64,000 nt of DNA from Bacteriovoracaceae bacterium UBA4573 (GTDB lineage Bacteria; Bdellovibrionota; UBA1018; UBA923): contig DGKJ01000029.1 of the NCBI GenBank assembly GCA_002387735.1, positions 5,015 through 69,014 of the forward strand. Reading direction: 5' to 3'. This document shows, piece by piece, positions 47,471 through 64,000 of this stretch. The position numbers and the translations under genes were made by a program. How positions within the stretch are numbered: position 1 is the stretch's first letter; each line of letters starts with the position of its first letter. Under the pieces are notes generated by a model. The model was not told where the DNA came from, ran no database searches, and saw only the letters and a list, made by a program, of their open reading frames with translations.

Positions 47471-47771
47471 TGGCACCGAAAACTTTAATCCCGGTGAGCA
47501 CCAACGCGTAAAGACTGCCACCAAACACCAGCACGCCCAAAACCCAGCATACGGCTGGCCCCATCAAGTACAATTCTTTAGTTTTACCCGTGGCCGCGGC
47601 AAGACCAACAGCGACTAACGCCAAAGCGTGAAACATTTGGTACCGTACCGCCGTTTCGAACACTTCCAACATTCTAGGCTCAAGCCGCGTTCGCAGAGCG
47701 TGTGCTCCAAAGGCCCCGAGGGCTACAGACAAAAATCCAAAAATACTCCCGATCACCAATATCCAACGCAT
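47388..47771 (-). CDS. DUF423-family small membrane protein
   Basis: 4 TM, 127 aa. N-terminus MRWILVIGSIFGFLSVALGAFGAHAL typical of DUF423 (YgdD-like). TAATG overlap with upstream phhA-like gene. Confidence 0.6.
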   Translation of the reverse strand: MRWILVIGSIFGFLSVALGAFGAHALRTRLEPRMLEVFETAVRYQMFHALALVAVGLAAATGKTKELYLMGPAVCWVLGVLVFGGSLYALVLTGIKVFGAITPIGGVLYLAGWTWLTVVAVRAAISS

Positions 47772-49618
47772 TACGCCGCGCCCTTAGACAGCGCGCTTGC
47801 GTCTGCAAGCAGTTCTCGACCCCGCGCAATCATTTCTGCTTTTTCTACCGACCCGCGGGCGATTTCGTCGAGTCGTTTGTTAATGTTACCGATCCAAGAC
47901 TGCACCCGATGTGCGTTAGAGGTTTTCGCGTCTAGATACCCTGCAATCTCCAGAAGTTCCAACCGCAACAACCAATCTCGGGGATATTTGCGATCAAGTT
48001 TTTCTACTACTCGGTCGAGTCTCACGCCCGTAGCTTCAGGAAGGTTTGCCAGGCTTGCTTTCTTTCTTAATACCGACTCCCGAAATGCTCTAACTTCAGC
48101 GTACAAAACATTAAGCTCTGCGTTTTCCTTCGTAAGATTAGTTTTGGGTTTCGACGGACGCTGGGTATAACCTCCCATCGACGCAACGTAGGACGAACGA
48201 TCCGGTGCGTGACCGAATACGCTTTTAATCGTATTGCCTCGCACCCAGTCGTATTCGCCCCAAGCCGGCTCAAACAGTATGCGGTCGCCCCACTGCACTT
48301 TACAGTCAGTGAAGGTCTTCACGAAACCGCGAGCCCCTGGCTTTGGTACTCCGAGAATTTTTACTCCTGAAACAAAAGTAATTTCGGTTTTTCCCGTAGA
48401 TAGTTTGCGTTCACTTTCGATAGGTCCAACCGGGCAACCAAACCCTTGAGGGTGCCGGGCGACGCCGTGGCCTTTAAGTTCTTTTTCACGAATAGCAAGT
48501 TGGCAGGGGCCTTCAAAACGCAAATAGGCTGGCGACCCATCGCGCGCGCAAAGGGTTTCTACTAATTTTCCGCCGATTTGCACGCCTGAATCAAGCTCTA
48601 CTGTACACACGGCCCGCGAACGTTGAGCTTTCTGCAAACCTGTAATTCCACCCGTTTTAAAAGCCATAGTGCGAGCGAACTGCTCCAACACGACTCCCAG
48701 CGCCTCGAAATTAGGTGTTACGAACAACTGCGGTTGCGGTTTGGTAATATCGTAATGTTGCTGAATACAATTAAGGTCAAACGGAAGCTTTTTTACCGCT
48801 CGATCGAAACAATGAAAAGACTCCGAAAGCGAAGACAACAACCCCGCCCCATAAATTTTTGGATTTTTTAAATCACCTACTAAACCGTATTCAGTTGTCC
48901 ACCAGGCCATGCGCGAAAGCTCGGCAGCTTCACTCGTGTGATCGATAAGTGAGAGAGCCTTTTGCAACTCACGCTCTGCCTTCGCAATGTCGGCCGACGT
49001 CGAACTAGGATTTTCTTTAATATCCGAAAGTTCGCGAATGGCGTCGTACAAGTTGAGATCATGCTGTGCGATGATCGCCTTTCGGGACACCTCGCCGTAT
49101 TGTTTAAGGTATTTTGCGTAGCTTCGATCCGCAAGAATAGGAGCGTGGCCCGCGGCCTCGTGTACTATGTCCGGAGCTGGTGTATAGCCCAAGTGTTCGA
49201 GCGTGCGCATGTCACAGGCGATCGGCAACACACCAATCGAAAGAAACTCTAAAAACACGGCCGGCGGAATAAACCCAACCACGGGTACCGCACGCCAACC
49301 AAAGCGTTTGAGTTTTGCATCCATTTCGCTAATCAACGGAATCCGCTCGATACAAATTCCTGTTTCCTCGAGCCCCTCTAGATATTTTTCATGGGCCTTT
49401 TTTGCAAAAAACCGTTGAGATACCCGCAAAATAAAACGCCAACTCGCATGATCAATGAAAGTGTAAAGAGACGGATCTTGGGCGGCCACAAACGCCGTAA
49501 GGTGAGTAGGAATCGCAATCGTCCGCACCGCTTTTTTGCGGGCGAGTACCCGGGTCTTTTTTTTCTTAACGAGCGAACGCTTTACAGGTTTCGACTTTGC
49601 TTTTTTTCGAGAACGCAT
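47771..49618 (-). CDS. Aromatic-amino-acid (phenylalanine-4-) hydroxylase-like protein with basic N-terminal and ~250-aa C-terminal extensions
   Basis: Core collinear with bacterial PhhA: ...ERIPLISEMDAKLKRFGWRAVPVVGFIPPAVFLEFLSIGVLP...PDIVHEAAGHAPILADRSYAKYL...WWTTEYGLVGDL...IYGAGLLSS. Iron ligands are the two His in HEAAGH, plus the downstream ...WWTTEYGL... Glu. N-terminal KKAKSKPVKR... and a C-terminal Gly/Cys-containing extra domain. Confidence 0.7.
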   Translation of the reverse strand: MRSRKKAKSKPVKRSLVKKKKTRVLARKKAVRTIAIPTHLTAFVAAQDPSLYTFIDHASWRFILRVSQRFFAKKAHEKYLEGLEETGICIERIPLISEMDAKLKRFGWRAVPVVGFIPPAVFLEFLSIGVLPIACDMRTLEHLGYTPAPDIVHEAAGHAPILADRSYAKYLKQYGEVSRKAIIAQHDLNLYDAIRELSDIKENPSSTSADIAKAERELQKALSLIDHTSEAAELSRMAWWTTEYGLVGDLKNPKIYGAGLLSSLSESFHCFDRAVKKLPFDLNCIQQHYDITKPQPQLFVTPNFEALGVVLEQFARTMAFKTGGITGLQKAQRSRAVCTVELDSGVQIGGKLVETLCARDGSPAYLRFEGPCQLAIREKELKGHGVARHPQGFGCPVGPIESERKLSTGKTEITFVSGVKILGVPKPGARGFVKTFTDCKVQWGDRILFEPAWGEYDWVRGNTIKSVFGHAPDRSSYVASMGGYTQRPSKPKTNLTKENAELNVLYAEVRAFRESVLRKKASLANLPEATGVRLDRVVEKLDRKYPRDWLLRLELLEIAGYLDAKTSNAHRVQSWIGNINKRLDEIARGSVEKAEMIARGRELLADASALSKGAA

Positions 49619-51291: not shown

Positions 51292-53255
51292 TTTACTCCC
51301 CTTACCCCAAAATTCTCGGTCTCCCCGCTTAAACTTGTATCTTCGTTGCGTAATGCGTTTCGTACTAAGTTTCTCGCGACACTAGGCCTTGGCACCATTT
51401 CTATGCCTTCATCGCCAAACCAACCGCGCACATCTTCTCGTAATCCGAGTCCATGCATGTAATTGTAAAGCGCTCGTCGCAGAGCTCGCCCCAACACGTC
51501 GTGATCCACTCCGGTCGGATCCACAAACTCTAGGTCGTTTTCCGCGAAGCCTTCAAATTTTTTGGGCAGAACTTTAATGCCAAAACGCTCAGGATTTCGA
51601 CCAATCGGACTATGCACAGTGGCCGAGAATCGGTGCCAATAAGCAGATTTTAAACAGTCGTTTTCGAAAAGTTGTCGCACTAGTTCCAAACTATCGACCG
51701 TGTCCTGAAGGGTTTGAGATGGAAACCCGTACATCAGATACGCGTGAACCAATATACCAGCGTTGGCAAAGTTTTTGGTCACTCTCGCGACCTGTTCGAC
51801 GGTCACGCCCTTATCCATGAGTTTCAATAGCCGATTGGTTGCCACCTCGAGGCCCCCAGTCACCGCGATACAACCGGCATCACTCATGAGTTGCGCCAGT
51901 TCAGACGTAAAACTTTTCTCGAATCTAAGATTTCCCCACCAACTCGCCACCAAGTCTCGTTTTAGTATTTCTTCGGAAATAGCTCGCAGAGCGGCGGGAG
52001 GAGCAGCCTCGTCTACAAAGTGAAAACCACTCACGCCGGTCTCTCGCACCAAAGCCTGCATGTGATCTACAACCATACCGCTCGGAGTGTTTTGATATCG
52101 CCCAATATAGTCGAGACTCGTGTCGCAAAACGTGCACTTTTTCCAGTAACAACCGTGGGCGATCGTCAATTTGTTCCACCGCGCGTCGGACCAAATCCGG
52201 TGCATGGGATTGAGCATTTCGATGACCGAAATATACTGCGCAAGATTTAAACCCTCGTAAGATGGGGCACCGAGCTCAGCCATGGGAATGTCGTCTTCCT
52301 GGGCGTCATTGCACCACTGAACACTAGTTCCATTCCCCACCAAAGTTCTTAGAAGTTTTGATTGCGGGCGCTTGCCGTGCAGAAACTCCAAAATGTTCAG
52401 AAGTGGTCGCGCTCCATCGTCAAACACCAAAAAATCAAAATAATTGAAAACCCGTGTTTCACTGCAACGTCGTAGTTCGGTATTCACGTAACCACCGCCA
52501 AGAGCCAACTTAATGTTCGGCTGCTTGAGTTTTACCTGACGCGCTACTCGAAACGCGCCATACACGTTTCCCGGAAACGGTGCACTCAAGCAAATGAGCT
52601 CCGGTTCTAGTTCCGCTACGACTTCCGCGGAGAGTTCATCGAGCATTTCGTCAACCAACGTAGGAGCCTCGGATTCTAATGCTTCGTTCAGAGCGGCAAA
52701 ACTTGTCTGACTGGCCGCCAGTTTCTCACCGTATCGCGCGAGACTAAACCGAGAGTCTATTCCCTGCGCAATTACGTCCGCCAGATCGTCCAAAAAAAGT
52801 GAACCCAGGTACTTTGCCTGATCTTGAACCCCCATTTCACCAAACATCTTTAACAGGTGGTGTCCTACAGCAGAGTCCTGAAGCGGAAGAAACCGAGGCC
52901 CCTCCGGCACCAAAGTGCGTCCAGCAAGACGCGTAGCAAGTGAAGGGTTTTTTCCTTGAAGAAACGCGACCACCGAATCGACAACCCGAACATAGTCGTC
53001 GGCCGCTTCTAAGAAAAACTGCACACTCTCTGATTCGATGGCTGACGATTCGAAATCTCTCTTTAAGCGTTCGCGAACTCGCTTTAATCCACTGGCCGAA
53101 AAAATCCTGCAGGCTAATTCAATTGAAAGATCTCTCTGGTAGGGCTGAACATTCAGTTCGCCGGCGCGGTTTTTTAGAAAACCATAAAGCGCGGCGCTCG
53201 CCGGATACGGCGTATTCAATTGCGTCATCGGTGGTGTAAGAAGAAGGACTCGCAC
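51288..53255 (-). CDS. B12-binding-domain radical SAM protein (non-canonical Cx4Cx2C cluster motif)
   Basis: N-terminal MRVLLLTPP...YPASAALYGFLKNRAG typical of the cobalamin-binding domain of class B rSAMs. GCYWKKCTFCD cluster motif. 655 aa. Confidence 0.65.
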   Translation of the reverse strand: MRVLLLTPPMTQLNTPYPASAALYGFLKNRAGELNVQPYQRDLSIELACRIFSASGLKRVRERLKRDFESSAIESESVQFFLEAADDYVRVVDSVVAFLQGKNPSLATRLAGRTLVPEGPRFLPLQDSAVGHHLLKMFGEMGVQDQAKYLGSLFLDDLADVIAQGIDSRFSLARYGEKLAASQTSFAALNEALESEAPTLVDEMLDELSAEVVAELEPELICLSAPFPGNVYGAFRVARQVKLKQPNIKLALGGGYVNTELRRCSETRVFNYFDFLVFDDGARPLLNILEFLHGKRPQSKLLRTLVGNGTSVQWCNDAQEDDIPMAELGAPSYEGLNLAQYISVIEMLNPMHRIWSDARWNKLTIAHGCYWKKCTFCDTSLDYIGRYQNTPSGMVVDHMQALVRETGVSGFHFVDEAAPPAALRAISEEILKRDLVASWWGNLRFEKSFTSELAQLMSDAGCIAVTGGLEVATNRLLKLMDKGVTVEQVARVTKNFANAGILVHAYLMYGFPSQTLQDTVDSLELVRQLFENDCLKSAYWHRFSATVHSPIGRNPERFGIKVLPKKFEGFAENDLEFVDPTGVDHDVLGRALRRALYNYMHGLGLREDVRGWFGDEGIEMVPRPSVARNLVRNALRNEDTSLSGETENFGVRGVK

Positions 53256-53388
53256 GACTACCCCTTAAAGACTTTTTCAGAAATAATGCATAGCATTAAC
53301 ACACTTAAAAAGTCAACTTAACCAAAGATATCGTAATCTTAGGGACTTGCCTCTCGTGTCGTGTTAGGCGGACGCCAGGGGGTGTTCT

Positions 53389-54828
53389 ATGAAAATTCTA
53401 AAATTCTTCTGGCCCGTGCTTGTTTTGGCCATGATTCCCGTTTCCAGTCACTCAGCGACAAAGGTTAACGATCTTTTGATCGCGATGTACATGGAGCCCC
53501 ACTCCCCGGGTGGACTGCACTTCGTCACATTTGAAACTCTTGGGGAAAACCCCACACCCGTGCCGTTTAAGGATTTACCAACCATCGATTCTTCGAAGCT
53601 CGTCATGAAGACCCACTCTCTTTCGCTTTCTTATTTGAGTTACCCCTTTGCTCACACACCCACACTGCCGCTGGTTGCGGGTTCACTACGGCTTGAAAAC
53701 CGAACCGTGGGCGTACCCGATTTAGTTCCTTCAGACCGCGGCTCTCGCCCGCTTGTGCTTGGCCAGGTAACCGAGAGCCTCGCACTAGATGTTCCAATCG
53801 GTGGAACCAATCACCTGATTTCCGTTTCGGAAGTTCGTTATGAGTCGGGAATCGCTCTTTTAGGCGACACCCTAGAGGCGCGCGGTCGTTTTCGGGACGC
53901 AGTTCTTCACGAAGCTCGAACCGATCTAAGAGAAAGTTTAAAACGCAACCGAGGTCACGAACCAGTCAATCGAGCCGCCCTCAACCGCATGTTTCCAGGA
54001 CTCGAGGTTAGCGCAAAATCCTTGATGGCCAGTTTACGGGCTTTTTTAATCGCCGAAGATGCATCGGAAGTCGACGCCACTCTAAAGAGATTGGAAGAGT
54101 TTTTTTATCGGCTTGCGGCCCAATCTCCGACACTCGTTGAAACGTCAGAGCGTGATTTCCTGGCCGGCCAGAAAATCCCCTCAACCTTGCCGAGATCTGT
54201 ACCGAACCCAGAAACCGCGACCGTAAGGCTCACGCGATTGTCTGAATTTTTTTTCGAGTCTGCTCAATCGTCGCACTTAGCACGGGAGCGCGGCGAAATC
54301 GAAAATGCTAAAATTGCGGCCACTAACGCATTTCGAGTGTTACTCGAAATGCACGTTGTGATCGGAAAAAATCTCGGTTCTCCGGGCACCAAGCGAACTC
54401 TCCATGCCCTGGGCGATGTTGGCATCATGATCGCATCAATGATTGCGTCGTGGAACACCGACGGCGGGGCCCATGCCGGTCTCTTGGCGCTGAGTTTCGC
54501 CGCAATGGCCGATTTATTTAGAACGACTTGGGTGCGCGACAACGTACTTCGCTCACCAAGATTTTTATTTCCCGGCATTCGCGGAAGCGTCGAACGCAAT
54601 TCCGCAAGGGACCTGCTCAGTCAAGGACGTTTCGAAAACCTACTGCAGGTAGGGCTCCGGAGCCCTGTAATAATAAACCCCCAGTTTCAGGATTGGCATC
54701 GAGCTGCTTCTGAACTCGCAGAAAACGGCAAACTCGTAAGTGCGCGAGAGATGCTCGACGTTCTAAAACTTGCGTCCAAACTCGAGGCCGACGCATTGGT
54801 TTCTTGCGCGACGCTACTTGAGAACTAA
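53389..54828 (+). CDS. Secreted hypothetical protein (479 aa)
   Basis: Signal peptide MKILKFFWPVLVLAMIPVSSHSA. Mostly helical C-terminal half. Divergent from the radical-SAM operon. Confidence 0.5.
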   Translation: MKILKFFWPVLVLAMIPVSSHSATKVNDLLIAMYMEPHSPGGLHFVTFETLGENPTPVPFKDLPTIDSSKLVMKTHSLSLSYLSYPFAHTPTLPLVAGSLRLENRTVGVPDLVPSDRGSRPLVLGQVTESLALDVPIGGTNHLISVSEVRYESGIALLGDTLEARGRFRDAVLHEARTDLRESLKRNRGHEPVNRAALNRMFPGLEVSAKSLMASLRAFLIAEDASEVDATLKRLEEFFYRLAAQSPTLVETSERDFLAGQKIPSTLPRSVPNPETATVRLTRLSEFFFESAQSSHLARERGEIENAKIAATNAFRVLLEMHVVIGKNLGSPGTKRTLHALGDVGIMIASMIASWNTDGGAHAGLLALSFAAMADLFRTTWVRDNVLRSPRFLFPGIRGSVERNSARDLLSQGRFENLLQVGLRSPVIINPQFQDWHRAASELAENGKLVSAREMLDVLKLASKLEADALVSCATLLEN

Positions 54829-55147
54829 AAGCGCACGCAGACTCACCTCTGCCGGGTGATCGCAAATGACATTGGAGTTCCCTTTGATGGACTGCCGAAC
54901 TCGTCGGACAAACCGATTATTCTCGATAGTTTATCGTCCTTAACACTTCCCTTTTGGCCTTTGTAGCGAAGCATGATAATATTGAAGACGTACTGCGTCA
55001 CACGTCTGTGAGGTGGTACCCCGTTTAAAGGAATAGTCCTCGAACGGGTGTTAATGTCCACTATCAGACCCGCCCAAGACGTCTTCCCAATGGTCCAGAC
55101 CTCTTGTCCGGATTTCGATAGTTCTGGTTCTAGAAAGAGGAGACCTC

Positions 55148-55528
55148 ATGGGTAAGAAACTATTTGTCGGCAACCTTCCATTTTCGGCAACTGACGAGTC
55201 GCTTGCGCAAATTTTCGCACAAGTCGGCACCGTTGAGTCCGCGAAGGTGATCACTGACAAAATGTCCGGGCGCAGTAAAGGCTTTGGATTCGTAGAAATG
55301 GCCGACGATGCGCAAGCAGCCGATGCCGTTGCGCGCTTCAATGGCATTGAACTCGAAGGCCGACCACTCACAGTAGCTGAAGCTAAACCGCAGGAGCCCC
55401 GCCAAGATCGTGGCGGCCGCGGTGGTTTTGGCGGTGGCGGTGGTCGCGGTGGTTACGGCGGCGGTGGCGGCCGTGGCGGCGATCGCGGTGGTTACGGCGG
55501 CGGCGGCGGTGGCCGCGGTCGATACTAA
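55148..55528 (+). CDS. RRM-type RNA-binding protein with RGG/Gly-rich C-terminal tail
   Basis: RNP-2 LFVGNLPF. RNP-1 KGFGFVEM. Tail (GGGGRGGYGGGGGRGGDRGGYGG). GAGGAGA SD 5 nt upstream. Confidence 0.85.
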   Translation: MGKKLFVGNLPFSATDESLAQIFAQVGTVESAKVITDKMSGRSKGFGFVEMADDAQAADAVARFNGIELEGRPLTVAEAKPQEPRQDRGGRGGFGGGGGRGGYGGGGGRGGDRGGYGGGGGGRGRY

Positions 55529-55552
55529 CCTCGGCTATAGAATATAGCTTCG

Positions 55553-55590
55553 AAAAACCCGGGTGGCGAAAGCTCCCCGGGTTTTTTTAT
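55553..55590. terminator. Bidirectional rho-independent terminator shared by the convergent RRM and 5'-nucleotidase genes
   Basis: AAAAACCCGGG-TGGCGAAAGCTCC-CCGGGTTTTTTT. A 6-7 bp GC stem flanked by an A-run and a T-run. The T-run contains the stop codon of the minus-strand gene. Confidence 0.7.
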
Positions 55591-57299
55591 TTTCGAAAAT
55601 TACTGAGCACCCCAGCACACGAGTCTTCACTCAATCGCAGGCGAGCGAGGCCCGGTAGGAGAACTTCAGTGTTTACTGGAGCATCGTTGAGAGTCCATTC
55701 GGCTCGCTGATAAATGCCGTCAATTTCCGGAATTTTATAGCCATTCATGCCGGTGTAATGATCCGTCACCACCAAGTAAAATCCATTTGGATCCACCACA
55801 CGTACAGTGCCATTGAGGTCGGTGATCAAGAAACGACGATCCCGTTCGACTACGTTAGAAGACAACACTGGATTGGGAAATGGACGGGAAGATTGCGCGC
55901 CGTAGTCGCGCATGGCCGCTACCAATTCAAGAAAGTCCGCGCCTTTTAAAAGGCGTGCGCCTAAGCGGCCCCGAAAGTGCACCACGCTCTTTAAATTCCC
56001 GACCGTGACCGGACCTTCGAAAAGCGCGTCGATTTTTGAACCCCATCCGTAGGACAAATAATTGTAAAGCCCTACAACGTCCGAGATTTTTCGGCCCACC
56101 TCTTTTTCGGAGTAAAACTTTAGCGCCCAATTCCTTAGAGTATCGGCCAAAACCCGCCCGACTCGCATTCGACGGTGCTCTTCGCGATTTAGAACGAACC
56201 CACGATCTTCCCAAAGCGGCGGAGCCAGAATCTCGACATTTTCGGCGTTGACGCTGTCTACAATCGCGTTGGCTTCTTTATAAAGTTCGGTAAACGCTTC
56301 GGGCAAAAGGGGCTCCGTTGGCTGCTGCAACCACTGATCACTGCTGCGACGGTCCCAATGATGAACCAGTGATACTTTGCCGTTGTCGTCCAGCTGAATC
56401 TCGGAAAAAGCTAGGTCCGACCCCGCCTCTACCACGCGCGTACCATGAAGTTCAGAATCAATTACCTGGTGCATATGGCCGCTAGCTACGAGCGGCACCA
56501 GCAACTTTTGTACGCGATCGTCACTGCGTTTCCAGTTTAAATACTCTTCGACGATCGGAGTCAGACGTGCTGCCCCATCGTGAATCAAAAAAACTACGCT
56601 TTCGACTCCGTCGTTGGCAGCCAATACGCTCTGTTCTTTCATCGTATCCAAGTATTTTCGTGGAGCCTCAGTTTTGAAAATACGAGCGCCCGTTTGGCTA
56701 TAAGCAGTTTCCTGAAAAAAAGTCTCAAGTGAAATACCTACGACCCGTACCCGTTTTCCCCCAAGTCGGTGTTCTTGGTACGGAGCAAAGATTCTACGGT
56801 ACTTCTTCTCCGGGAACAAATTGGCCGTCAGCACACTTTGTCCCGTGCGATTCAAATAACGCCGGTGCTGCTTCAAAAAAACTTGATGGGGTTTTCCGAC
56901 GTGATTGAAATCAAACCCCTCGTGGTTGCCAAGCGCCAGAGCCGTTGGGTATTCGTTGGCTAAAGTCTCTACCAATCGATAGTCGAGTTCGCCGTGGTCA
57001 CGCTCTGCGTACAATCCGGTTCCAGCAATGTCGCCATTCACTAGTACCAAGACGTCACCATTGGCAGCTCGCTGGCGAAATTCCCTAACCCGAGCCGATA
57101 GGCCTTTTAAAAATGGTTCGAATTGGTCGTAGGCGCTATGAGTGTCCGAAATGAGAAAAATTCGACTTTCACCAGCCTGGGCCGAAGCGACTGTGGCCAA
57201 CAGAATCTGTACCAAAACCAAAAGCGCCAGTTTCATTACTATTATTCCCTTCGAAGTTGATGGGGACGACCTACCGAAGTTCAAAGATTTTTGATACAC
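55587..57299 (-). CDS. Secreted bifunctional metallophosphatase/5'-nucleotidase (UshA-like)
   Basis: Signal peptide. Calcineurin-like motifs ISDTHSAY, LVNGDIAG, LGNHEGFDF, then GHMHQV. C-terminal 5'-nucleotidase substrate-binding domain. Confidence 0.7.
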   Translation of the reverse strand: MYQKSLNFGRSSPSTSKGIIVMKLALLVLVQILLATVASAQAGESRIFLISDTHSAYDQFEPFLKGLSARVREFRQRAANGDVLVLVNGDIAGTGLYAERDHGELDYRLVETLANEYPTALALGNHEGFDFNHVGKPHQVFLKQHRRYLNRTGQSVLTANLFPEKKYRRIFAPYQEHRLGGKRVRVVGISLETFFQETAYSQTGARIFKTEAPRKYLDTMKEQSVLAANDGVESVVFLIHDGAARLTPIVEEYLNWKRSDDRVQKLLVPLVASGHMHQVIDSELHGTRVVEAGSDLAFSEIQLDDNGKVSLVHHWDRRSSDQWLQQPTEPLLPEAFTELYKEANAIVDSVNAENVEILAPPLWEDRGFVLNREEHRRMRVGRVLADTLRNWALKFYSEKEVGRKISDVVGLYNYLSYGWGSKIDALFEGPVTVGNLKSVVHFRGRLGARLLKGADFLELVAAMRDYGAQSSRPFPNPVLSSNVVERDRRFLITDLNGTVRVVDPNGFYLVVTDHYTGMNGYKIPEIDGIYQRAEWTLNDAPVNTEVLLPGLARLRLSEDSCAGVLSNFRK

Positions 57300-57306
57300 C
57301 TTCTTT

Positions 57307-58191
57307 ATGGAAAACCGACAACTGCCTGCCTATTTTTTGGAAAACGGCCAACACCCAATTGAAAAAGCTCACGTTGCCGTCGTACCGGTCCCCTTCGAAG
57401 GGGCGATCAGCTACCTATCGGGGGCCTCGGCCGGACCTCGGGCCATTCTCGAAGCCAGTGCGCAAGTTGAGCTATATGATTTCGAAAATGATGTTGATCT
57501 AACAAACGTGCGATTTCATACAGCAGATGCCCCTACTCTTAAAACCTACCAAGACGTGCGCAATCACGTCGCATCACATCTGGCATCTTTAACGCCGGAA
57601 CAATTCTATCTCGGCCTTGGCGGTGATCACACGGTAACTATTCCGGCGATCGAGCATTTTTCAAAAAAATATCCCAAAATGGGAATCGTTCAATTCGACG
57701 CACATGCTGATCTCCGCGACACGCTTCACGACGACAAATACAGTCACGCTTGCATCATGCGTCGTAATGCTGAGATTATTGGACCCAAAAACATTCTCTC
57801 CGTTGGCATTCGGGCGGTAAGTTTAGAAGAAAAAAATTACATTCAAGAAAATGGCGTGAACACCATTCCCGGAAACTTCGCTTTACACGAAAATTTACTT
57901 CCGCGTTTTAGCGAACTACTCATACGACTCCCCCACGACATTTTTCTAACCGTGGACCTTGACGGTCTTGACCCAACGATCATGCCTCACGTGGGCACGC
58001 CCGTGCCTGGCGGTCTAAGCTGGCACCAAACGGTCCAGTTGATCAAAGAACTTTTTCGCCGCAAAAACGTAATCGCGGCTGACGTCGTGGAAATCGCGAG
58101 CAACTCCAACTCTCAGCGGTCCGACTTTACAGCAGCTCTGCTTGCACAAAAGATCGTGGCGTTTTGGGCCCGCAATCGGCGTCTCACATGA
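57307..58191 (+). CDS. Arginase/agmatinase/formiminoglutamase-family ureohydrolase
   Basis: Mn-ligand motifs GGDHTVTIPAI, QFDAHADL, LTVDLDGLDP. 294 aa. The SELLIRLPHDIFLTVDLDGLDP region resembles agmatinase. Confidence 0.75.
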   Translation: MENRQLPAYFLENGQHPIEKAHVAVVPVPFEGAISYLSGASAGPRAILEASAQVELYDFENDVDLTNVRFHTADAPTLKTYQDVRNHVASHLASLTPEQFYLGLGGDHTVTIPAIEHFSKKYPKMGIVQFDAHADLRDTLHDDKYSHACIMRRNAEIIGPKNILSVGIRAVSLEEKNYIQENGVNTIPGNFALHENLLPRFSELLIRLPHDIFLTVDLDGLDPTIMPHVGTPVPGGLSWHQTVQLIKELFRRKNVIAADVVEIASNSNSQRSDFTAALLAQKIVAFWARNRRLT

Positions 58192-58502
58192 ACTCAGATA
58201 TTGCCAGTGCCCCCGTACTCGCACTTACGGAAGAAAATTTCTCAAAGGGTTTTTTAGTCGACGATGAATGGATCGCGGGAGTCACCGAGTTACCAAGCAC
58301 TACGGGGGGAACGGTTTTCGCTGCCTATGTTAGTCACTACCTGACTGGTGAGACTATCCAATACCAGGAATTCCCTGAACCACGCCAGGCCATAGATTTT
58401 ATACGCGCGATCGACCGCGCATGGGTGTACGAAGCAATCGGGTGCGACACTCACGGCAGTAGCGCGAAATCTTGCTCTAAATCTTGTTCCGGCTGCGGTT
58501 AA
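58188..58502 (+). CDS. Small hypothetical protein with Cys-rich C-terminus (CSKSCSGCG)
   Basis: ATGA overlap with the ureohydrolase stop (translational coupling). 104 aa. Ends in C-x3-C-x2-C. Confidence 0.3.
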   Translation: MNSDIASAPVLALTEENFSKGFLVDDEWIAGVTELPSTTGGTVFAAYVSHYLTGETIQYQEFPEPRQAIDFIRAIDRAWVYEAIGCDTHGSSAKSCSKSCSGCG

Positions 58503-59065
58503 ACCGACACTACTTCTTGAATTTCTGGGATAGCGCTTTTGAGGCGTGTCTCAATGCCTTGTTTTAGTGTGGCAGTCGAACTCGGACAACCACTGCATGA
58601 GCCCTGCATTTGCAAATACACCACGCCCGCCTCGAAGCGATCAAAAGTGATATCGCCGCCATCCATTGCTACGGCTGGACGAATTTCGCGGTCTAGAATT
58701 TCACGAATCTTGTCTTCGATTCCGCCACCGGCGCTCGCGCTAGCGGCAGCATCATGGGCCGCTACATAGTCGGCGTCAACCACTGGCAAACCCTTACCCA
58801 AGTGGTCTTTCATGACGTCCATGACTCCTCGATTAAGACTCTCCCAGTCGCCGTCACTGCCTTTAGTGATTGTCACAAAATTGCGGCCGATCATTACCCC
58901 CGCCACTCCAAGCACTTCGAAAAGTCGGGTGGCGAGTGGAGACTTCGTGGCGGACTCACGAGTCGCAAAATTAGCAGGCCCTTTTTCCAAAATCGTTTCT
59001 TCTAACACGTACTTGAGCGTGTTCGGATTGGGCGTGAATTCCAACGAAATGTTCGGCGTGTTCAT
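58499..59065 (-). CDS. Nfu-type Fe-S cluster assembly protein (Nfu_N + NifU C-terminal CxxC domain)
   Basis: N-domain LKYVLEETILEKG...VAGVMIGRNFVTITK. C-domain ...IRPAVAMDGGDITF...LQMQGSCSGCPSSTATLKQGIE. Confidence 0.75.
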   Translation of the reverse strand: MNTPNISLEFTPNPNTLKYVLEETILEKGPANFATRESATKSPLATRLFEVLGVAGVMIGRNFVTITKGSDGDWESLNRGVMDVMKDHLGKGLPVVDADYVAAHDAAASASAGGGIEDKIREILDREIRPAVAMDGGDITFDRFEAGVVYLQMQGSCSGCPSSTATLKQGIETRLKSAIPEIQEVVSV

Positions 59066-59130
59066 GAGTTCAGCTCCTGATAGATGATTCTAATGCCGAT
59101 GATATATATCGTAATTTGAGCGAATGCACA

Positions 59131-59934
59131 CTAAAAACGAAATCGAACGCCGCCTTTTAGCACCGATATGTCGTCGCGCAAGTAAGGAACCGTGGCTCCG
59201 TCACGCACCGACGGGCTATTTCTTAAAATTTGGTCAAAATTGGCAAAAAGCCCTACGCGCAAGTCGAAGTCTCTAAGGGCTACTAAGTAGTCGGCGTCGA
59301 TTTCGAATTGGGTTGTATCGCCGGTGCCATAGGTCACGGCGTGATCAACATCGTAGGAAATTGAAGCGGACTTACAAGTAAAGGCCCCTTTTGAACCAAC
59401 AACTGGGCGACCACTCTCTTGTTCACCGTGAGTGAGATTGTCGTACCAAGCCACACCTGCCACGCCGTAGAGTTCAATCTGGCAGCTGCCTTTTGCCTTA
59501 ATCACTTTCCCAAGATAAATGGACGTTTTGGTTCGAACATAGTCTGGAATTCCCACGATTTCAGAAACCTGCACGGCCGCGTCCAGAGCGTCGACGCCGA
59601 CCCAATAGTGTCCGCCGGCGAGATCAACGTAGCGCGAGAGTCCTAAAACGCCTTTCACGGAACCCGCCCACGCGTCGTCGACCACCGAACCAGTGGCTTC
59701 GATGCGGGATATCCATTTTGTCTTAGCTTTTTTGGACAGCTTTCCGGATTGAATGATTAACAACTGCAGATCCGTTCCACGATCCATTCCTGAGTTGTAG
59801 TTATAGGGGTGACGCATACCGAGCATCCCCACCTGAGCTTTGGTCACCGGTAAAGCGTACACTGTAACGCTCTCATCGGCGTTTGCGCTCCCGATCAAAC
59901 TTAAACCCAACAATAACGTGGTGAGAATTTTCAT
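59131..59934 (-). CDS. Outer-membrane beta-barrel protein (hypothetical)
   Basis: Signal peptide MKILTTLLLGLSLIGSANA. Alternating amphipathic beta-strands. C-terminal ...GGVRFRF ending in Phe. Confidence 0.5.
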   Translation of the reverse strand: MKILTTLLLGLSLIGSANADESVTVYALPVTKAQVGMLGMRHPYNYNSGMDRGTDLQLLIIQSGKLSKKAKTKWISRIEATGSVVDDAWAGSVKGVLGLSRYVDLAGGHYWVGVDALDAAVQVSEIVGIPDYVRTKTSIYLGKVIKAKGSCQIELYGVAGVAWYDNLTHGEQESGRPVVGSKGAFTCKSASISYDVDHAVTYGTGDTTQFEIDADYLVALRDFDLRVGLFANFDQILRNSPSVRDGATVPYLRDDISVLKGGVRFRF

Positions 59935-60075
59935 GAAAATGGTTCCCTTTCGAAAAAAATACAGTTCCGAGTAACGCGGCGCTTAATATCAAAATCTCCT
60001 GCAACTTGAAAGGCAAACGCCATTCTGATAAAAAAAGTCGATTTTTTAAGGATCCTCATAACCGACGGAGTCCGA

Positions 60076-61632
60076 ATGCGCGTGTTGGCTTTTGCACTTA
60101 GCTTAATGTTCGGTCCCGAGCTTTTAACCCCCACGACAACTGCAGCAGCCGAAATTTCACCGACTCCCAAACCTCAGAATCAAGCAATGATCACCCTTTT
60201 ACATATAAACGACGCATATGAACTGGCTCCAATCCAGGGCCGGGGTGGACTTGCCCGAATAAAAGGGCTTAGCGAACAAATTCGACGCCACCATGAAAAA
60301 CCGGAGAACGTGCTGTTGCTCCATGCCGGCGATTTTTTGGCCCCTTCGCTGGATTCTCAGATTTTTCGGGGCACCCAAATGATTGACGTCATGAATCGTA
60401 TGGGTTTCGACGCGGTCACCTTGGGTAACCATGAATTCGAGTACGGCCCGGAAACACTCTTAGAAAGAATGGCGACCGCCAAGTTCCCAATTGTTACTTC
60501 GAATATTCACCAAATTAATAGTTTTGGTTTTGGCAACGCTCATCGATTCTTATTGATTGAACGAAATGGCATCAAAATTGGAATTTTCGCAGTCACCACA
60601 CCTAGCACCACGCAGTCTTCTTTTCCCGGACCGAACGTGGTGTTTGACGACGTTATTCCGGCAGCAAAAAAAGCGGTTCGACAGTTACAGGACCGAGGCG
60701 CGCAATTTGTAATCGCCCTCACTCACCTAGGAATCGCAGAGGACCGCGCACTAGCCCGCGCCGTTGACGGCGTTCATCTAATTCTTGGTGGCCATGATCA
60801 TAGCCCCATGCACATCGAAGAAAACGGCGTGCAAATAATTAAAGCCGGTACCGACGCTCAGTACTTGGGACGAGTAGATTTGGTTTTTACGGATGGTGGA
60901 GCCGTGAGTAGCAAACAATCCTCTTTAATACCCATAACTGCTGAGACTCCGTCTGATCCTGATCTTGACGCCCTCATTACGAATTACGTGAACGAGGTTC
61001 AGCAAAAAACTCACCATCCCTTGGCAGCCACAGAAGTGGACTTTGAGGTGGACCAAGATGTCGTTCGCACAAAAGAAACCGCTGTGGGAAATCTTCTTGC
61101 TGACGCTTTTCGTGAACGCTTCAAGGCCGACCTTGCAATCGTCGGAGGTGGCACGATTCGCGGCAACCGGCTTTTTAAGGCGGGAGAATCTATTTCGCTT
61201 TCGGACATTCGCAGCATGATTCCCTGGGCCGGCACGTTGGCCAAGATTAAAATATCGGGCGCGACTTTGCTGAGAACACTGGAACACTCGATCAACACCA
61301 TTCCGAGTTCGAGTTTTCCCCAGGTTTCCAAGAACGTCCGACTTGAATTTGATCCGTCCCGTTCGCCCGGTAACAGGATCGTAACTCTCACGCTCGACGG
61401 AATTCCCGTGAGTGCCGACCAGCAGTACACTTTAGCGATCGACAATTACCGAATTAATGGCGGTGACGGGTTTGGATACCTCGCACAGGAAAGCGAGATT
61501 CTAATCGGCGACGACGCAAAGGTCGGCGAATTCGATGCTTTAGTCGACGCCATTCGCGGAAAGACAATCGCACCAGTGGTCGATGGCCGCGTTAAATGCG
61601 TCGATATTCTAAAATCCGGTTCAGAGAGCTGA
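60076..61632 (+). CDS. Secreted bifunctional metallophosphatase/5'-nucleotidase (UshA-like), paralog of 55587..57299
   Basis: Signal peptide. LLHINDAYE, LHAGDFLAPS, LGNHEFEYG, GGHDHSP. C-terminal 5'-nucleotidase domain (...LAIDNYRINGGDGF...). Confidence 0.7.
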   Translation: MRVLAFALSLMFGPELLTPTTTAAAEISPTPKPQNQAMITLLHINDAYELAPIQGRGGLARIKGLSEQIRRHHEKPENVLLLHAGDFLAPSLDSQIFRGTQMIDVMNRMGFDAVTLGNHEFEYGPETLLERMATAKFPIVTSNIHQINSFGFGNAHRFLLIERNGIKIGIFAVTTPSTTQSSFPGPNVVFDDVIPAAKKAVRQLQDRGAQFVIALTHLGIAEDRALARAVDGVHLILGGHDHSPMHIEENGVQIIKAGTDAQYLGRVDLVFTDGGAVSSKQSSLIPITAETPSDPDLDALITNYVNEVQQKTHHPLAATEVDFEVDQDVVRTKETAVGNLLADAFRERFKADLAIVGGGTIRGNRLFKAGESISLSDIRSMIPWAGTLAKIKISGATLLRTLEHSINTIPSSSFPQVSKNVRLEFDPSRSPGNRIVTLTLDGIPVSADQQYTLAIDNYRINGGDGFGYLAQESEILIGDDAKVGEFDALVDAIRGKTIAPVVDGRVKCVDILKSGSES

Positions 61633-61654
61633 CCCGGCGTAAGCGACGCCTAAA

Positions 61655-62797
61655 TCAGACGTACTGACCTTTCTTTATCTTATCTACGATGATTTTTTCT
61701 GGCATCGTCGGGTCCTTCGGATCAACCGTAAAGTACGCCTGTTGTTCGCAACGACGTTTGTTTTTAAGCAACCAACGAAGAATTTCAGAACACCCTTTAT
61801 TGCGTTTATCTTGAAAAAAGGGGTCATTTTTAAGTGCGTCGTCGGCTTTCTTTAGGGCGCGCACCTCTTGAGCGTCATTCTCTTTTACGGGATAGTCGTT
61901 TAGATCATATTTTTTAATGTCTTCTGGCAACACCCCTAAGAAATGAACATCGGGGGCCGAGTAGTCGGAGTTTCGAATAAGACTCGCTGCGGACCCCGCC
62001 TTAAGTGTGCGATAAATGTTTTGCATGGTGTACGCGTCAAGGTCGCCAAAGAAAAACATCGGCGTCCGCAATTGGTCCTGAATGAGTTTAGCCCAGCCGC
62101 GCACGGCGTTTGACGGCACCCCTTGCGCACCAATCACGATAGCATTGTGCCGTTTGGTGAAACCATTGGCCACGAGCGTATTGGCGGTACCTTCCGATTC
62201 GACAATAAGAGCAAAATCCACTTTCTTTTTTGTCGTCAGTTTTAAGTTTTGCGGTCGATTTTTTGGCTGAAAGGGACTTGTTCCGAGCTTAGAAAGGTCG
62301 ATCACTGCCTTTTCGCCGTCCGGTAAAGTTTCCGTAACAACCAAATGCTGGGAATAGGTTTGCCCGCCTCGGTCGTTTGCGTAGCAATTCACTTCTTCGC
62401 GATAAATCTCTAACATTTCGCAGATGAAGTCGATCGTAGCGTCACTTTCGTCTTGATCCCCGAAATCCAGCGGTTTGAGTTTTGGATTGTGCTTAATCTC
62501 GCCTTTCGAAATATAGTACAACTCGCGTTTGGTATTTACGCTCCCGGTATCGAGATTTCGTAAAAGAATCTCCAGCATGAAAATTGCGCGCGACATTTTT
62601 TTTACAGAACTTACGTTCAGTTCTGTACGAACCTTTTTGTTACCGGGCTGCAAATAACCGACCTTGTGATCGTATCTCGCGTTGTCCAATGCGCATTTGG
62701 TGGCCAGCAGCACTGGACGTTTGGCCTTCTCGAGATCACTCAACAAGCGGCTACAAAGTTCTCGCGACATTTTTGGTATCGTTTGGTCTTTATTCAT
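61655..62797 (-). CDS. DNA topoisomerase VI subunit A / Spo11-like (5Y-CAP + Toprim)
   Basis: Catalytic-Tyr motif TKRELYYISK in winged-helix region. Toprim Glu (ALIVESEGTANTL) and DxD (FFFGDLDAYTMQNI). 380 aa, typical of Top6A. Confidence 0.7.
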   Translation of the reverse strand: MNKDQTIPKMSRELCSRLLSDLEKAKRPVLLATKCALDNARYDHKVGYLQPGNKKVRTELNVSSVKKMSRAIFMLEILLRNLDTGSVNTKRELYYISKGEIKHNPKLKPLDFGDQDESDATIDFICEMLEIYREEVNCYANDRGGQTYSQHLVVTETLPDGEKAVIDLSKLGTSPFQPKNRPQNLKLTTKKKVDFALIVESEGTANTLVANGFTKRHNAIVIGAQGVPSNAVRGWAKLIQDQLRTPMFFFGDLDAYTMQNIYRTLKAGSAASLIRNSDYSAPDVHFLGVLPEDIKKYDLNDYPVKENDAQEVRALKKADDALKNDPFFQDKRNKGCSEILRWLLKNKRRCEQQAYFTVDPKDPTMPEKIIVDKIKKGQYV

Positions 62798-62805
62798 GTG
62801 TTCCT

Positions 62806-64000
62806 CTACAAATTGAAACTAGTTTGACCGCCGCCATCACTGTCGTCGTCGTCACTGCTAGCTCGTACGGCAGCCGGCTTAGCTTTTTCACGGGCACCGC
62901 TTTTAGATTTTTTCTGTTTTCCGTTTTCGGAGCCGTCACTATCCCCGCCTTCGTCGTCGTCCGGCTTTTTATTTTTGTTACTTTTGGCGATCGCTGCGGT
63001 CACAATCGCATCTGCTTCTTTTAACTCGGTTTGTGCTTCCCGAGCATCACGACCAAGAATTTTTACCAACCCATCCTCAGCGCGTTTTTTGCGAGCTTCA
63101 GGAGCATTGGTGATCCGACAAAGACCATCGACTAAAATTGGGCAAAACTGTTCGATATGCCGCAGTTTTTCTTCGAGATCATTGGCTTTGACTTCGCGCC
63201 GAATATGCCGTGAAAGTCGTTGCCCCGCTTGTATAAGCGCTCTTCGAATTTCTTCTACTAGCTCTTCACTCGCGTCGATGGTTTCTTTGGATGCATTTTT
63301 AAATTTAATAAACGGCGACACCACCGACACGGCCATGACGTAGGGGCCCGAAGGCAACCCACCGCGCGGCTGCGCCAGTTGATATGCGCGCCAATTTACA
63401 CTTTCAATTGCTTTAACTATTGCACATGCCGCTTTATCGAACTGTAGCGGCACCCGATTAGCGAAACGCAAAACCTGAACCGGAGTTTCGGCGTCATCGC
63501 CTACCGCGCGGTTTAACAATCGCGCAATCGCCACTTCAACCTGAACGGGTTTAAAGTCCGCGATGGTGGGCTTGCGAGAAACCACCGAAAAAAAATCTAC
63601 TTCGCCCAATCTTTGAATTGCTTTCGAGAGCGACGCCTCGCCGATTGCAAGCACCGATCGAGTGCTAGGCGCCATGAGCGGAGTATTTTGAATTGCACTG
63701 AAAAGTTCTCTAAACTCTGCTTCACTGAGTGCATCAACGTTCTTTTCAAACAATGCGGGCTTTAGCCCAGCTTTCTTTAATTCGGCAATCGATGCATCGC
63801 TGACTCGCGAAAAACCTTTTTTTAGCCAAGCCGAAGTTTTCACCCGGCCAAACAAGTGAGAGTGCGCAATGAATTCGCCCAACTTCATGGTGTGGGGGTG
63901 CGGTTCGGTGGCTTGAGGAATTTCTGGGATCTCTTTGGTCAGACGTTCAAGTTTTTGCACGCCCAGTTCAGGAAGTTTATAGCTAAGCGTTATGTGGGGG
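62806..64000 (-). CDS. DNA topoisomerase VI subunit B, C-terminal part (H2TH + transducer). Gene continues beyond the window edge
   Basis: Transducer-domain block VLRFANRVPLQFDKAACAIVKAIESVNWRAYQL...GPYVMAVSVVSPFIKFKNASKETIDASEELVEEIRRAL matches the Top6B transducer. The GHKL ATPase N-terminal half is not in the window. Charged low-complexity C-tail. Confidence 0.65.
   Translation of the reverse strand, partial: PHITLSYKLPELGVQKLERLTKEIPEIPQATEPHPHTMKLGEFIAHSHLFGRVKTSAWLKKGFSRVSDASIAELKKAGLKPALFEKNVDALSEAEFRELFSAIQNTPLMAPSTRSVLAIGEASLSKAIQRLGEVDFFSVVSRKPTIADFKPVQVEVAIARLLNRAVGDDAETPVQVLRFANRVPLQFDKAACAIVKAIESVNWRAYQLAQPRGGLPSGPYVMAVSVVSPFIKFKNASKETIDASEELVEEIRRALIQAGQRLSRHIRREVKANDLEEKLRHIEQFCPILVDGLCRITNAPEARKKRAEDGLVKILGRDAREAQTELKEADAIVTAAIAKSNKNKKPDDDEGGDSDGSENGKQKKSKSGAREKAKPAAVRASSDDDDSDGGGQTSFNL

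Follow-up and report, generated by a model that had tools for sequence, protein, structure and literature searches.

A likely topoisomerase VI gene pair on the chromosome of an Oligoflexia-labelled member of the Bdellovibrionota: a constrained catalytic core, a replaced KGRR loop and a variable charged tail

The analyzed stretch, referred to as the window, comprises 64,000 nucleotides of contig DGKJ01000029.1 from Bacteriovoracaceae bacterium UBA4573. At its end, two adjacent genes on the minus strand were identified which, judged from their sequences, very likely code for both subunits, A and B, of a functional type IIB topoisomerase, topoisomerase VI (topo VI), on the chromosome of a member of the Bdellovibrionota (Oligoflexia). 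All parts and residues for the strand-passage chemistry are present and under selection to stay. The two open reading frames (ORFs) at 61655-62797 and 62806-64000, the latter (B) open to the window edge, agree with the preliminary description of this DNA, which had been made from the letters alone, and their family matches are far above chance level. For the A subunit, the following features were determined.

61655..62797, minus strand: top6A, complete coding sequence of 380 aa found as an ORF, with a winged-helix/5Y-CAP domain and a Toprim domain

62513..62527, minus strand: catalytic motif R91-E-L-Y94-Y95, placed by HMMER alignment to 1d3y_A, with Y95 corresponding to M. jannaschii Tyr103

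62036..62200, minus strand: Toprim metal ligands E200 (62198-62200), D252 (62042-62044) and D254 (62036-62038), aligned to the IET and DGD of 1d3y_A

The winged-helix (5Y-CAP) domain of Top6A was detected with the Pfam model TP6A_N (3.4e-13; 49.6 bits against a cut-off of 26), and the second domain with TOP6A-Spo11_Toprim (PF21180; 4.9e-36; 124.7 bits against 24.1). The alignment to Top6A of M. jannaschii in the PDB (1d3y_A; 1.8e-35) showed an identity of 34% and brought the motif K90-R-E-L-Y-Y95 onto the REAYY of 1d3y. Residue conservation was counted over about 120 homologues per subunit (n=120 for A and 119 for B). R91 and Y95 were found to be invariant, E200 and D254 were kept in 120 of 120 sequences and D252 (of D252-L-D254) in 119. 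The 380-aa Top6A/Spo11-like protein with RELYY and a Toprim E...DxD, as described beforehand, was thus recovered by the Pfam matches and by the alignment to 1d3y_A, and the hidden Markov models (HMMs) assign it to topo VI A and not to a Toprim family outside the topoisomerases. The best NCBIfam models for the two window proteins were those of topo VI A and topo VI B, respectively; for Top6A this was NF003335 by far, the runner-up reaching 170.6 bits. The exact A protein is recorded on 17 contigs, and NCBI lists it as "DNA topoisomerase VI [Oligoflexia bacterium]" (assembly GCA_035437165.1).

The features of the B subunit within the window are given below; AF2 stands for the AlphaFold2 model of the protein.

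62806..64000, minus strand: 3′ two thirds of top6B, residues 209-605 of 605 aa plus the stop codon, frame open to the window edge

63679..63906, minus strand: H2TH domain, about residues 240-315, from alignment and AF2 helices

63166..63669, minus strand: transducer domain, residues 319-486, from Pfam Topo-VIb_trans

63382-63393, minus strand: WKxY-type motif W411-R-A-Y414, aligned to M. mazei W400-K401-Q402-Y403

63286-63288, minus strand: switch lysine K446, aligned to S. shibatae K427 and present in 119 of 119 homologues

The start codon of top6B lies 623 nt past the window end, so that the first 208 residues (the GHKL ATPase) are outside the window. They were recovered from a 131-kb Logan contig (L001), which is identical to window positions 51655-64000 (100% identity over 12,346 nt) and then runs on. 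Continued on this contig, the gene encodes a protein of 605 aa, for which the start common to the homologues was chosen. The GHKL half that had been expected beyond position 64000, upstream of the H2TH and transducer part, was found there with a HATPase_c match (9.8e-11). Topo-VIb_trans (PF09239) was matched by the window fragment with 1.7e-43 and by the full-length protein with 3.4e-43; the latter also passed the cut-off of NCBIfam NF003218 (274 bits) with 505.8 bits. Residues 13-498 were aligned to Top6B of M. mazei (2q2e_B; 1.8e-84), and the 16 best PDB matches of a Foldseek search with the AF2 model were all Top6B.

The catalytic Glu, the Mg-binding Asn, the DxGxG motif and the Gly-rich lid of the GHKL domain are present in the alignment to 2q2e_B and 2zbk_B. 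The GHKL/Bergerat ATP-site residues E43, N47, D85, G87, G89 and G116, all located on L001, were invariant in the 119 homologues. The H2TH region aligned nearly continuously with Top6B of M. mazei and S. shibatae, with one gap of 3 residues, and a helical bundle was modelled at H248-312 with a predicted local distance difference test (pLDDT) of 57-90, mostly 74-90, per block. The WKxY motif has been described as a DNA-binding element of topo VI. In the clade studied here W411, R412 and Y414 were found to be invariant, and the exchange of K to R compared to M. mazei is conservative. The stalk of Top6B also stays basic (R469, R472, R475 and R476).

By homology with the archaeal enzyme, the two subunits would assemble into an A2B2 heterotetramer, in which the GHKL domains of B would bind ATP and dimerise round the transported duplex. 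The transducer with its switch lysine Lys446 would pass the ATP/dimerisation signal to the A dimer, where Tyr95 and the Mg2+ site of the Toprim domain (E200, D252 and D254) would cut the gate duplex. The other duplex would then pass and the cut be resealed.

The distribution of the pair was determined by scanning GTDB with one genome for each species, and a close relative was found in at least 356 species genomes. The following figures on identity and naming refer to the best 80 of these. Their Top6A proteins are 80-88% identical to that of the window. Nearly all of their names belong to the Bdellovibrionota lineage, with the classes Oligoflexia, Bdellovibrionia and Bacteriovoracia represented, and a few metagenome-assembled genomes (MAGs) bear other or generic names. 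Relatives named Bdellovibrio sp. and Pseudobdellovibrionaceae showed 81-85% identity in Top6A, and the pair is also carried by Oligoflexus tunisiensis (81%). The earlier statement that topo VI is only sporadic in Bacteria holds across Bacteria as a whole but not within the Bdellovibrionota. A search of 1.84 billion representatives at 50% identity resulted in one full-length Top6A match of 56%, the next full-length matches being 34% and about 30% identical (at most 34-37%). Based on these identities, the Top6A clade is tight internally and far from other topo VI-A sequences.

Selection was examined in comparison with the closest relative (L088; Top6A 96% identical), with window 61655-62797 set against L088:8001-9146. 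For Top6A, the proportion of synonymous differences (pS) was 0.84 and thus saturated, and that of nonsynonymous differences (pN) was 0.039; the core of B had a pN of 0.087. Saturation at synonymous sites together with a low pN shows that very strong purifying selection acts on Top6A and on the core of Top6B. With saturation reached even in the closest relative, an identity of 80-88% over three classes indicates unusually strong constraint. The few flanking genes that the compared loci have in common are less conserved (Nfu 60-72%, arginase 63%), and the top6 proteins are among the most strongly constrained in these loci. The saturated synonymous sites and the low pN, taken with the native GC content and codon use described below, point to an old, vertically kept and strongly selected enzyme. 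The isolation of the clade and its spread over the phylum likewise suggest that its acquisition is old.

With regard to the cellular role, we lean slightly towards topo VI being the main decatenase and relaxase of the cell, which would stand in for topo IV in unlinking replicated chromosomes. Gyrase is presumably present in the host bacterium as well. This role is derived from the published lack of topo IV in topo VI-bearing bacteria outside the Pseudomonadota and Terrabacteria, among which B. bacteriovorus is listed under Bdellovibrionota (Allen & Maxwell 2024). By the GyrA-box classification of the same study, ParC occurs in Pseudomonadota and Terrabacteria only, and topo VI was proposed as a specialised decatenase where topo IV is absent, its role in bacteria being stated as untested (Allen & Maxwell 2024). 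Topo VI of M. mazei was found to complement an E. coli parE(ts) mutant, which is given as unpublished data in the cited literature. In the window, no type IIA topoisomerase was found among the 10 largest ORFs.

Alternatively, topo VI could be an auxiliary, specialised enzyme beside gyrase and topo IV, acting for instance on the genome copies of polyploid filaments or on histone-coated DNA. The two enzymes do not exclude each other, since seven topo VI-bearing bacteria retain topo IV, and a review of 2023 lists "Top IV (Bd0005)" for B. bacteriovorus; the endoreduplication analogy of the preliminary description, which fits such a role, derives from plants. However, ParC was placed in Pseudomonadota and Terrabacteria only, with B. 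bacteriovorus under Bdellovibrionota (Allen & Maxwell 2024). The very strong purifying selection throughout the phylum also suits a core function better than an accessory one. Moreover, the pair occurs in Oligoflexus tunisiensis, which is not known to be a predator, so that a link to predatory filamentous growth, as proposed at first, is not required. Taken together, an auxiliary role is possible but rather unlikely, and replacement of topo IV is the role preferred here.

A part of Top6B that lies outside the conserved domains is its C-terminus, for which two features were recorded.

62809..62982, minus strand: disordered tail S548-L605 with alternating basic and acidic blocks, from AF2 and composition

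62809..62826, minus strand: C-terminal hexapeptide Q-T-S-F-N-L, a possible short linear motif forming a lone hydrophobic island

The last 58 aa of Top6B contain 13 D/E and 11 K/R, in line with the acidic/basic low-complexity tail described previously. Residues 552-605 were modelled with a pLDDT below 50 (means of 29-39 for blocks of 10 residues) and had no secondary structure. Past the last conserved block (…LGRDA), the tails of the relatives, rich in K, E, D, A and S, could not be aligned with each other. They are between 4 and about 300 aa long, and the closest relative lacks the long tail, its own being 45 codons shorter. A conserved domain in the tail was ruled out on these grounds (not alignable, length of 4 to about 300 aa, short in the closest relative). 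The earlier remark that such a tail is not typical of archaeal Top6B proved right, as those proteins end near the stalk or, in M. mazei, carry an Ig-like domain; the tail itself varies and is not conserved. We infer that the tail is a disordered, fast-evolving and lineage-specific appendage outside the conserved machine. Its most likely contribution is a non-specific affinity for DNA, given by the Lys-rich blocks, or a short docking motif specific to the lineage.

Very long Lys-rich tails of 186-306 aa were observed in the relatives L080, L086 (Oligoflexus tunisiensis) and L065. Some tails (e.g., that of L080) contain tandem KAAKAP repeats, which resemble histone H1-like DNA-binding tails. Further recurrent tail motifs were QE[AVT]FDF, KKPKIIL, PVVEA[IL]EEGVLQ and DVIDVHA.

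The hexapeptide QTSFNL holds the sole F and the sole L of the last 58 residues. In shuffled tails, a pattern of this type occurred with a probability of 0.002 at any position and of 3e-5 at the C-terminus, the pattern having been set post hoc. The tails were also compared with the published clamp-binding consensus (Q-phi-x-[LM]-[FL] or Q-phi-x-[LM]-x-[FL]) in two sets, 111 unique tails of relatives and 77 unique GTDB tails. The consensus was found in 8 of the 111 tails compared to 0.8 expected (maximum of 4 in 1000 shuffles) and in 3 of the 77 GTDB tails compared to 0.6 expected (shuffle maximum likewise 4). Examples are QLALPL, QINLPL, QLEMRL, QLVMDL and QLGLF, as well as QLKLF and QMELF at the C-terminus; with M at position 2, QMELF is not counted by the strict pattern. 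Clamp-like motifs are carried, among others, by the tails of P0142, P0145, P0148, P0178, P0181, P0202, L025, L040 and L051. As a feature of the whole clade, a clamp-binding motif was ruled out, being present in a minority of tails only.

Based on these motifs, the Top6B tail might be a tether that docks topo VI on the beta sliding clamp behind replication forks. The occurrence of the consensus above expectation in the 111-tail set and, with 3 of 77, in the GTDB set, the near-canonical QLALPL, QLGLF and the C-terminal QLKLF, and the end of the window tail in the only hydrophobic island of 58 polar residues speak in favor of such a function. On the other hand, about 87-93% of the tails are without the motif, and QTSFNL itself deviates from the consensus in its second residue (T) and its fourth (F). 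In the closest relative (Top6A 96% identical), the tail is short and QTSFNL is missing. In addition, shuffles can reach the enrichment of the GTDB set, related sequences push the counts up, and the relaxed pattern was set post hoc. In the titles and abstracts of the literature, no paper was found that ties topo VI to the bacterial sliding clamp. Clamp tethering is rated as a possibility for a minority of lineages, and as doubtful for the tail of the window protein.

A second deviation from known Top6B proteins concerns the KGRR loop of the GHKL domain, which has been described as a sensor of the transported segment (T-segment) and of DNA crossings; a loop mutant of M. mazei topo VI is without strand passage. 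The M. mazei residues K186-G-R-R189 were aligned to L191-N-G-E194, and the lone basic residue nearby is R188. The loop segment G-R-I-Q-L-N-G-E-G is located at L001:8736-8762 (residues 188-196, about 70-100 nt past the window end). This non-basic version is kept across the Bdellovibrionota clade and in L089, whose A subunit is 56% identical, whereas the archaeal sequences compared have at least 3 basic residues in the KGRR-type loop. Combining both deviations, one could imagine that in the Bdellovibrionota a topo VI of archaeal descent was rewired, lost the KGRR loop and uses a fast-evolving disordered docking tail (with clamp motifs in some lineages and possibly QTSFNL here) for recruitment to the replisome, where it would remove precatenanes; this composite is regarded as improbable.

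Several observations weigh against the assignment of the pair to a functional topo VI. With L-N-G-E in place of the basic KGRR loop, T-segment sensing may differ from that of the M. mazei enzyme; the loop is, however, a functional motif of that enzyme and no criterion of family membership. On its best NCBIfam model, NF003335, Top6A reached 389 bits, which is below the cut-off of 424 bits. The AF2 model of Top6B, built from a shallow alignment of close relatives and used for domain layout and tail disorder only, is only moderately confident (mean pLDDT of 64.6; predicted template modelling score of 0.42). Finally, the literature found on topo VI of the Bdellovibrionota consists of a mention in a review, with no enzymology or genetics.

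It would be consistent with the first two of these points if the genes were degenerate or had taken on another function, as a break-maker of the Spo11 type or as a DNA binder without catalysis, given that the crossing-sensor loop essential in M. mazei is non-basic here and that Top6A falls below one NCBIfam equivalog cut-off. Such a fate is highly improbable: none of the catalytic, Mg2+-binding, ATP-binding or switch-Lys residues is lost, and all are invariant or close to it; in contrast to the meiotic TOPOVIBL, the motifs of the GHKL domain are conserved in full; pN is far below pS; and the WRxY motif and the basic stalk are kept. A functional topo VI is thus retained as the assignment.

For the origin of the pair, gene arrangement and composition were analyzed. 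Between the two genes, the following feature was found.

62798..62805, minus strand: B-A spacer of 8 nt (AGGAACAC) with a Shine-Dalgarno-like AGGA, between the B stop codon and the ATG of A

The short spacer and the AGGA are consistent with a co-transcribed and translationally coupled pair. In the relatives, top6B and top6A overlap or sit close to each other (8 nt overlap in L088), and 77 of 80 loci having both genes show B directly upstream of A in the same orientation. The same B-then-A order was found on an archaeal contig (L092), which agrees with the order in archaeal operons pointed out earlier. The neighbors of the pair are ordinary chromosomal genes (5′-nucleotidase, NifU/Nfu, arginase, ABC transporter, 2-oxoglutarate dehydrogenase and H+-pyrophosphatase). 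The flanking genes differ among the 80 loci, with almost none in common. GC content, GC content at third codon positions (GC3) and codon-usage distance of both top6 genes are inside the spread of the 35 other window genes used as a reference.

Bacterial topo VI overall stems from archaeal transfers, and the bacterial A subunits form two clusters within the archaeal clade, one of them near the Methanococcales (Allen & Maxwell 2024). The best PDB match of Top6A, that of M. jannaschii, is consistent with this placement. A recent horizontal acquisition (horizontal acquisition as such had been raised as a question in the preliminary description) or a mobile-element passenger like topo VIII or Mini-A might further be suggested by a relative on a contig labelled viral in IMG/VR and by a distant pair amid many small same-strand ORFs, but it is hardly credible and was ruled out on composition and gene context: GC, GC3 and codon usage are native, the neighbors are of the chromosomal housekeeping type, the phylum-wide clade isolated from other topo VI-A indicates that the event is old, A and B are two distinct polypeptides that include an H2TH domain and match topo VI models, and the "viral" contig is 482 kb long.

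The latter contig (L087; IMG/VR UViG_3300028558_000016, catalogued as viral) carries a B-A pair with a Top6A identity of 74%. Its length of 482 kb makes a bacterial contig, or a fragment bearing a prophage, the probable explanation. The distant B-A pair (L091:2494-5086; A about 30% identical) is located beside a DEAD/ERCC3-type helicase, and its Top6B is also without a basic KGRR-type loop. A viral or other mobile element is conceivable for this locus.

The pair does not represent a new kind of system, because NCBI already lists the identical A protein under the name DNA topoisomerase VI and topo VI has been published for the Bdellovibrionota. In B. bacteriovorus, topo VI corresponds to Bd2864/Bd2865, as noted in the review of 2023. 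A survey covered topo VI in 17 bacterial families including the Pseudobdellovibrionaceae (Allen & Maxwell 2024). B. bacteriovorus belongs to the same phylum and has the same enzyme, and the published reading as a substitute of topo IV applies. In contrast to that sampling, with one family of the Bdellovibrionota, the pair was seen here over three classes, and the copy described is from an uncultured, Oligoflexia-labelled MAG. What is added here is modest and concerns four points, namely how widely the pair occurs in the phylum, how extremely the proteins are constrained, the exchanged KGRR loop and the disordered tails with their motifs.

Compared to archaeal topo VI (M. mazei 2Q2E, S. shibatae 2ZBK and M. 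jannaschii 1D3Y), the two-subunit architecture and the B-then-A order are the same. The GHKL, H2TH and transducer domains in B, the winged-helix and Toprim domains in A, the catalytic Tyr and the E...DxD are common to both, as are the E/N/DxGxG of the ATP site, the switch Lys and the WKxY-type motif, and the proteins align over their whole lengths. Differences are the identity of only about 34% and the change from KGRR to L-N-G-E. Furthermore, the Ig-like C-terminal domain of M. mazei Top6B is missing, and an extra conserved helix and the variable, disordered charged tail are found instead.

The proposed job, ATP-dependent decatenation and relaxation, is the same as that of the bacterial topo IV (ParC/ParE), which is a functional analogy only; topo IV is a type IIA enzyme with an unrelated architecture of the cleavage core, three gates and 4-nt overhangs. 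The Top6A/Spo11 catalytic fold is also found in topo VIII/Mini-A and in the eukaryotic SPO11-TOPOVIBL. According to the literature, topo VIII occurs on plasmids, either free or integrated, and Mini-A occurs in viruses, whereas the meiotic TOPOVIBL is without H2TH and has a degenerate GHKL domain. Unlike in these systems, A and B are encoded here by separate chromosomal genes, the GHKL domain is intact and H2TH is present.

Lys-rich disordered C-terminal tails are known from actinobacterial topoisomerase I, where they are reported to boost DNA affinity and processivity. The Top6B tail is similar in being a variable, basic, low-complexity extension of a conserved topoisomerase core. It differs in the enzyme class, in the acidic blocks mixed in and in its lack of conservation even among close relatives.

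Bacterial topo VI is without biochemical or genetic characterization, and its role has been acknowledged as open (Allen & Maxwell 2024). The Bdellovibrionota, with the genetically tractable B. bacteriovorus, are a good place to ask whether a type IIB enzyme can be a bacterial decatenase. Concrete hypotheses for work on bacterial topo VI are provided by the exchange of the KGRR loop and by the tails that bear motifs.

A scan for promoters and terminators around the operon revealed no promoter-like site, and terminator-like sites were not above shuffles. An Rfam scan of the whole window gave no matches, hence no rRNA or tRNA. Besides the pair, further genes of the window were recorded. A 615-aa protein (47771-49618, minus strand) contains a biopterin-dependent aromatic amino-acid hydroxylase domain and long extra regions, and an 871-aa SNF2-family helicase is encoded at 26524-29139 (minus strand). 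At 55148-55528 (plus strand), a 126-aa protein with a eukaryote-like RRM_1 domain (Pfam) was identified, the relatives of which are 72-76% identical in 2 related loci.

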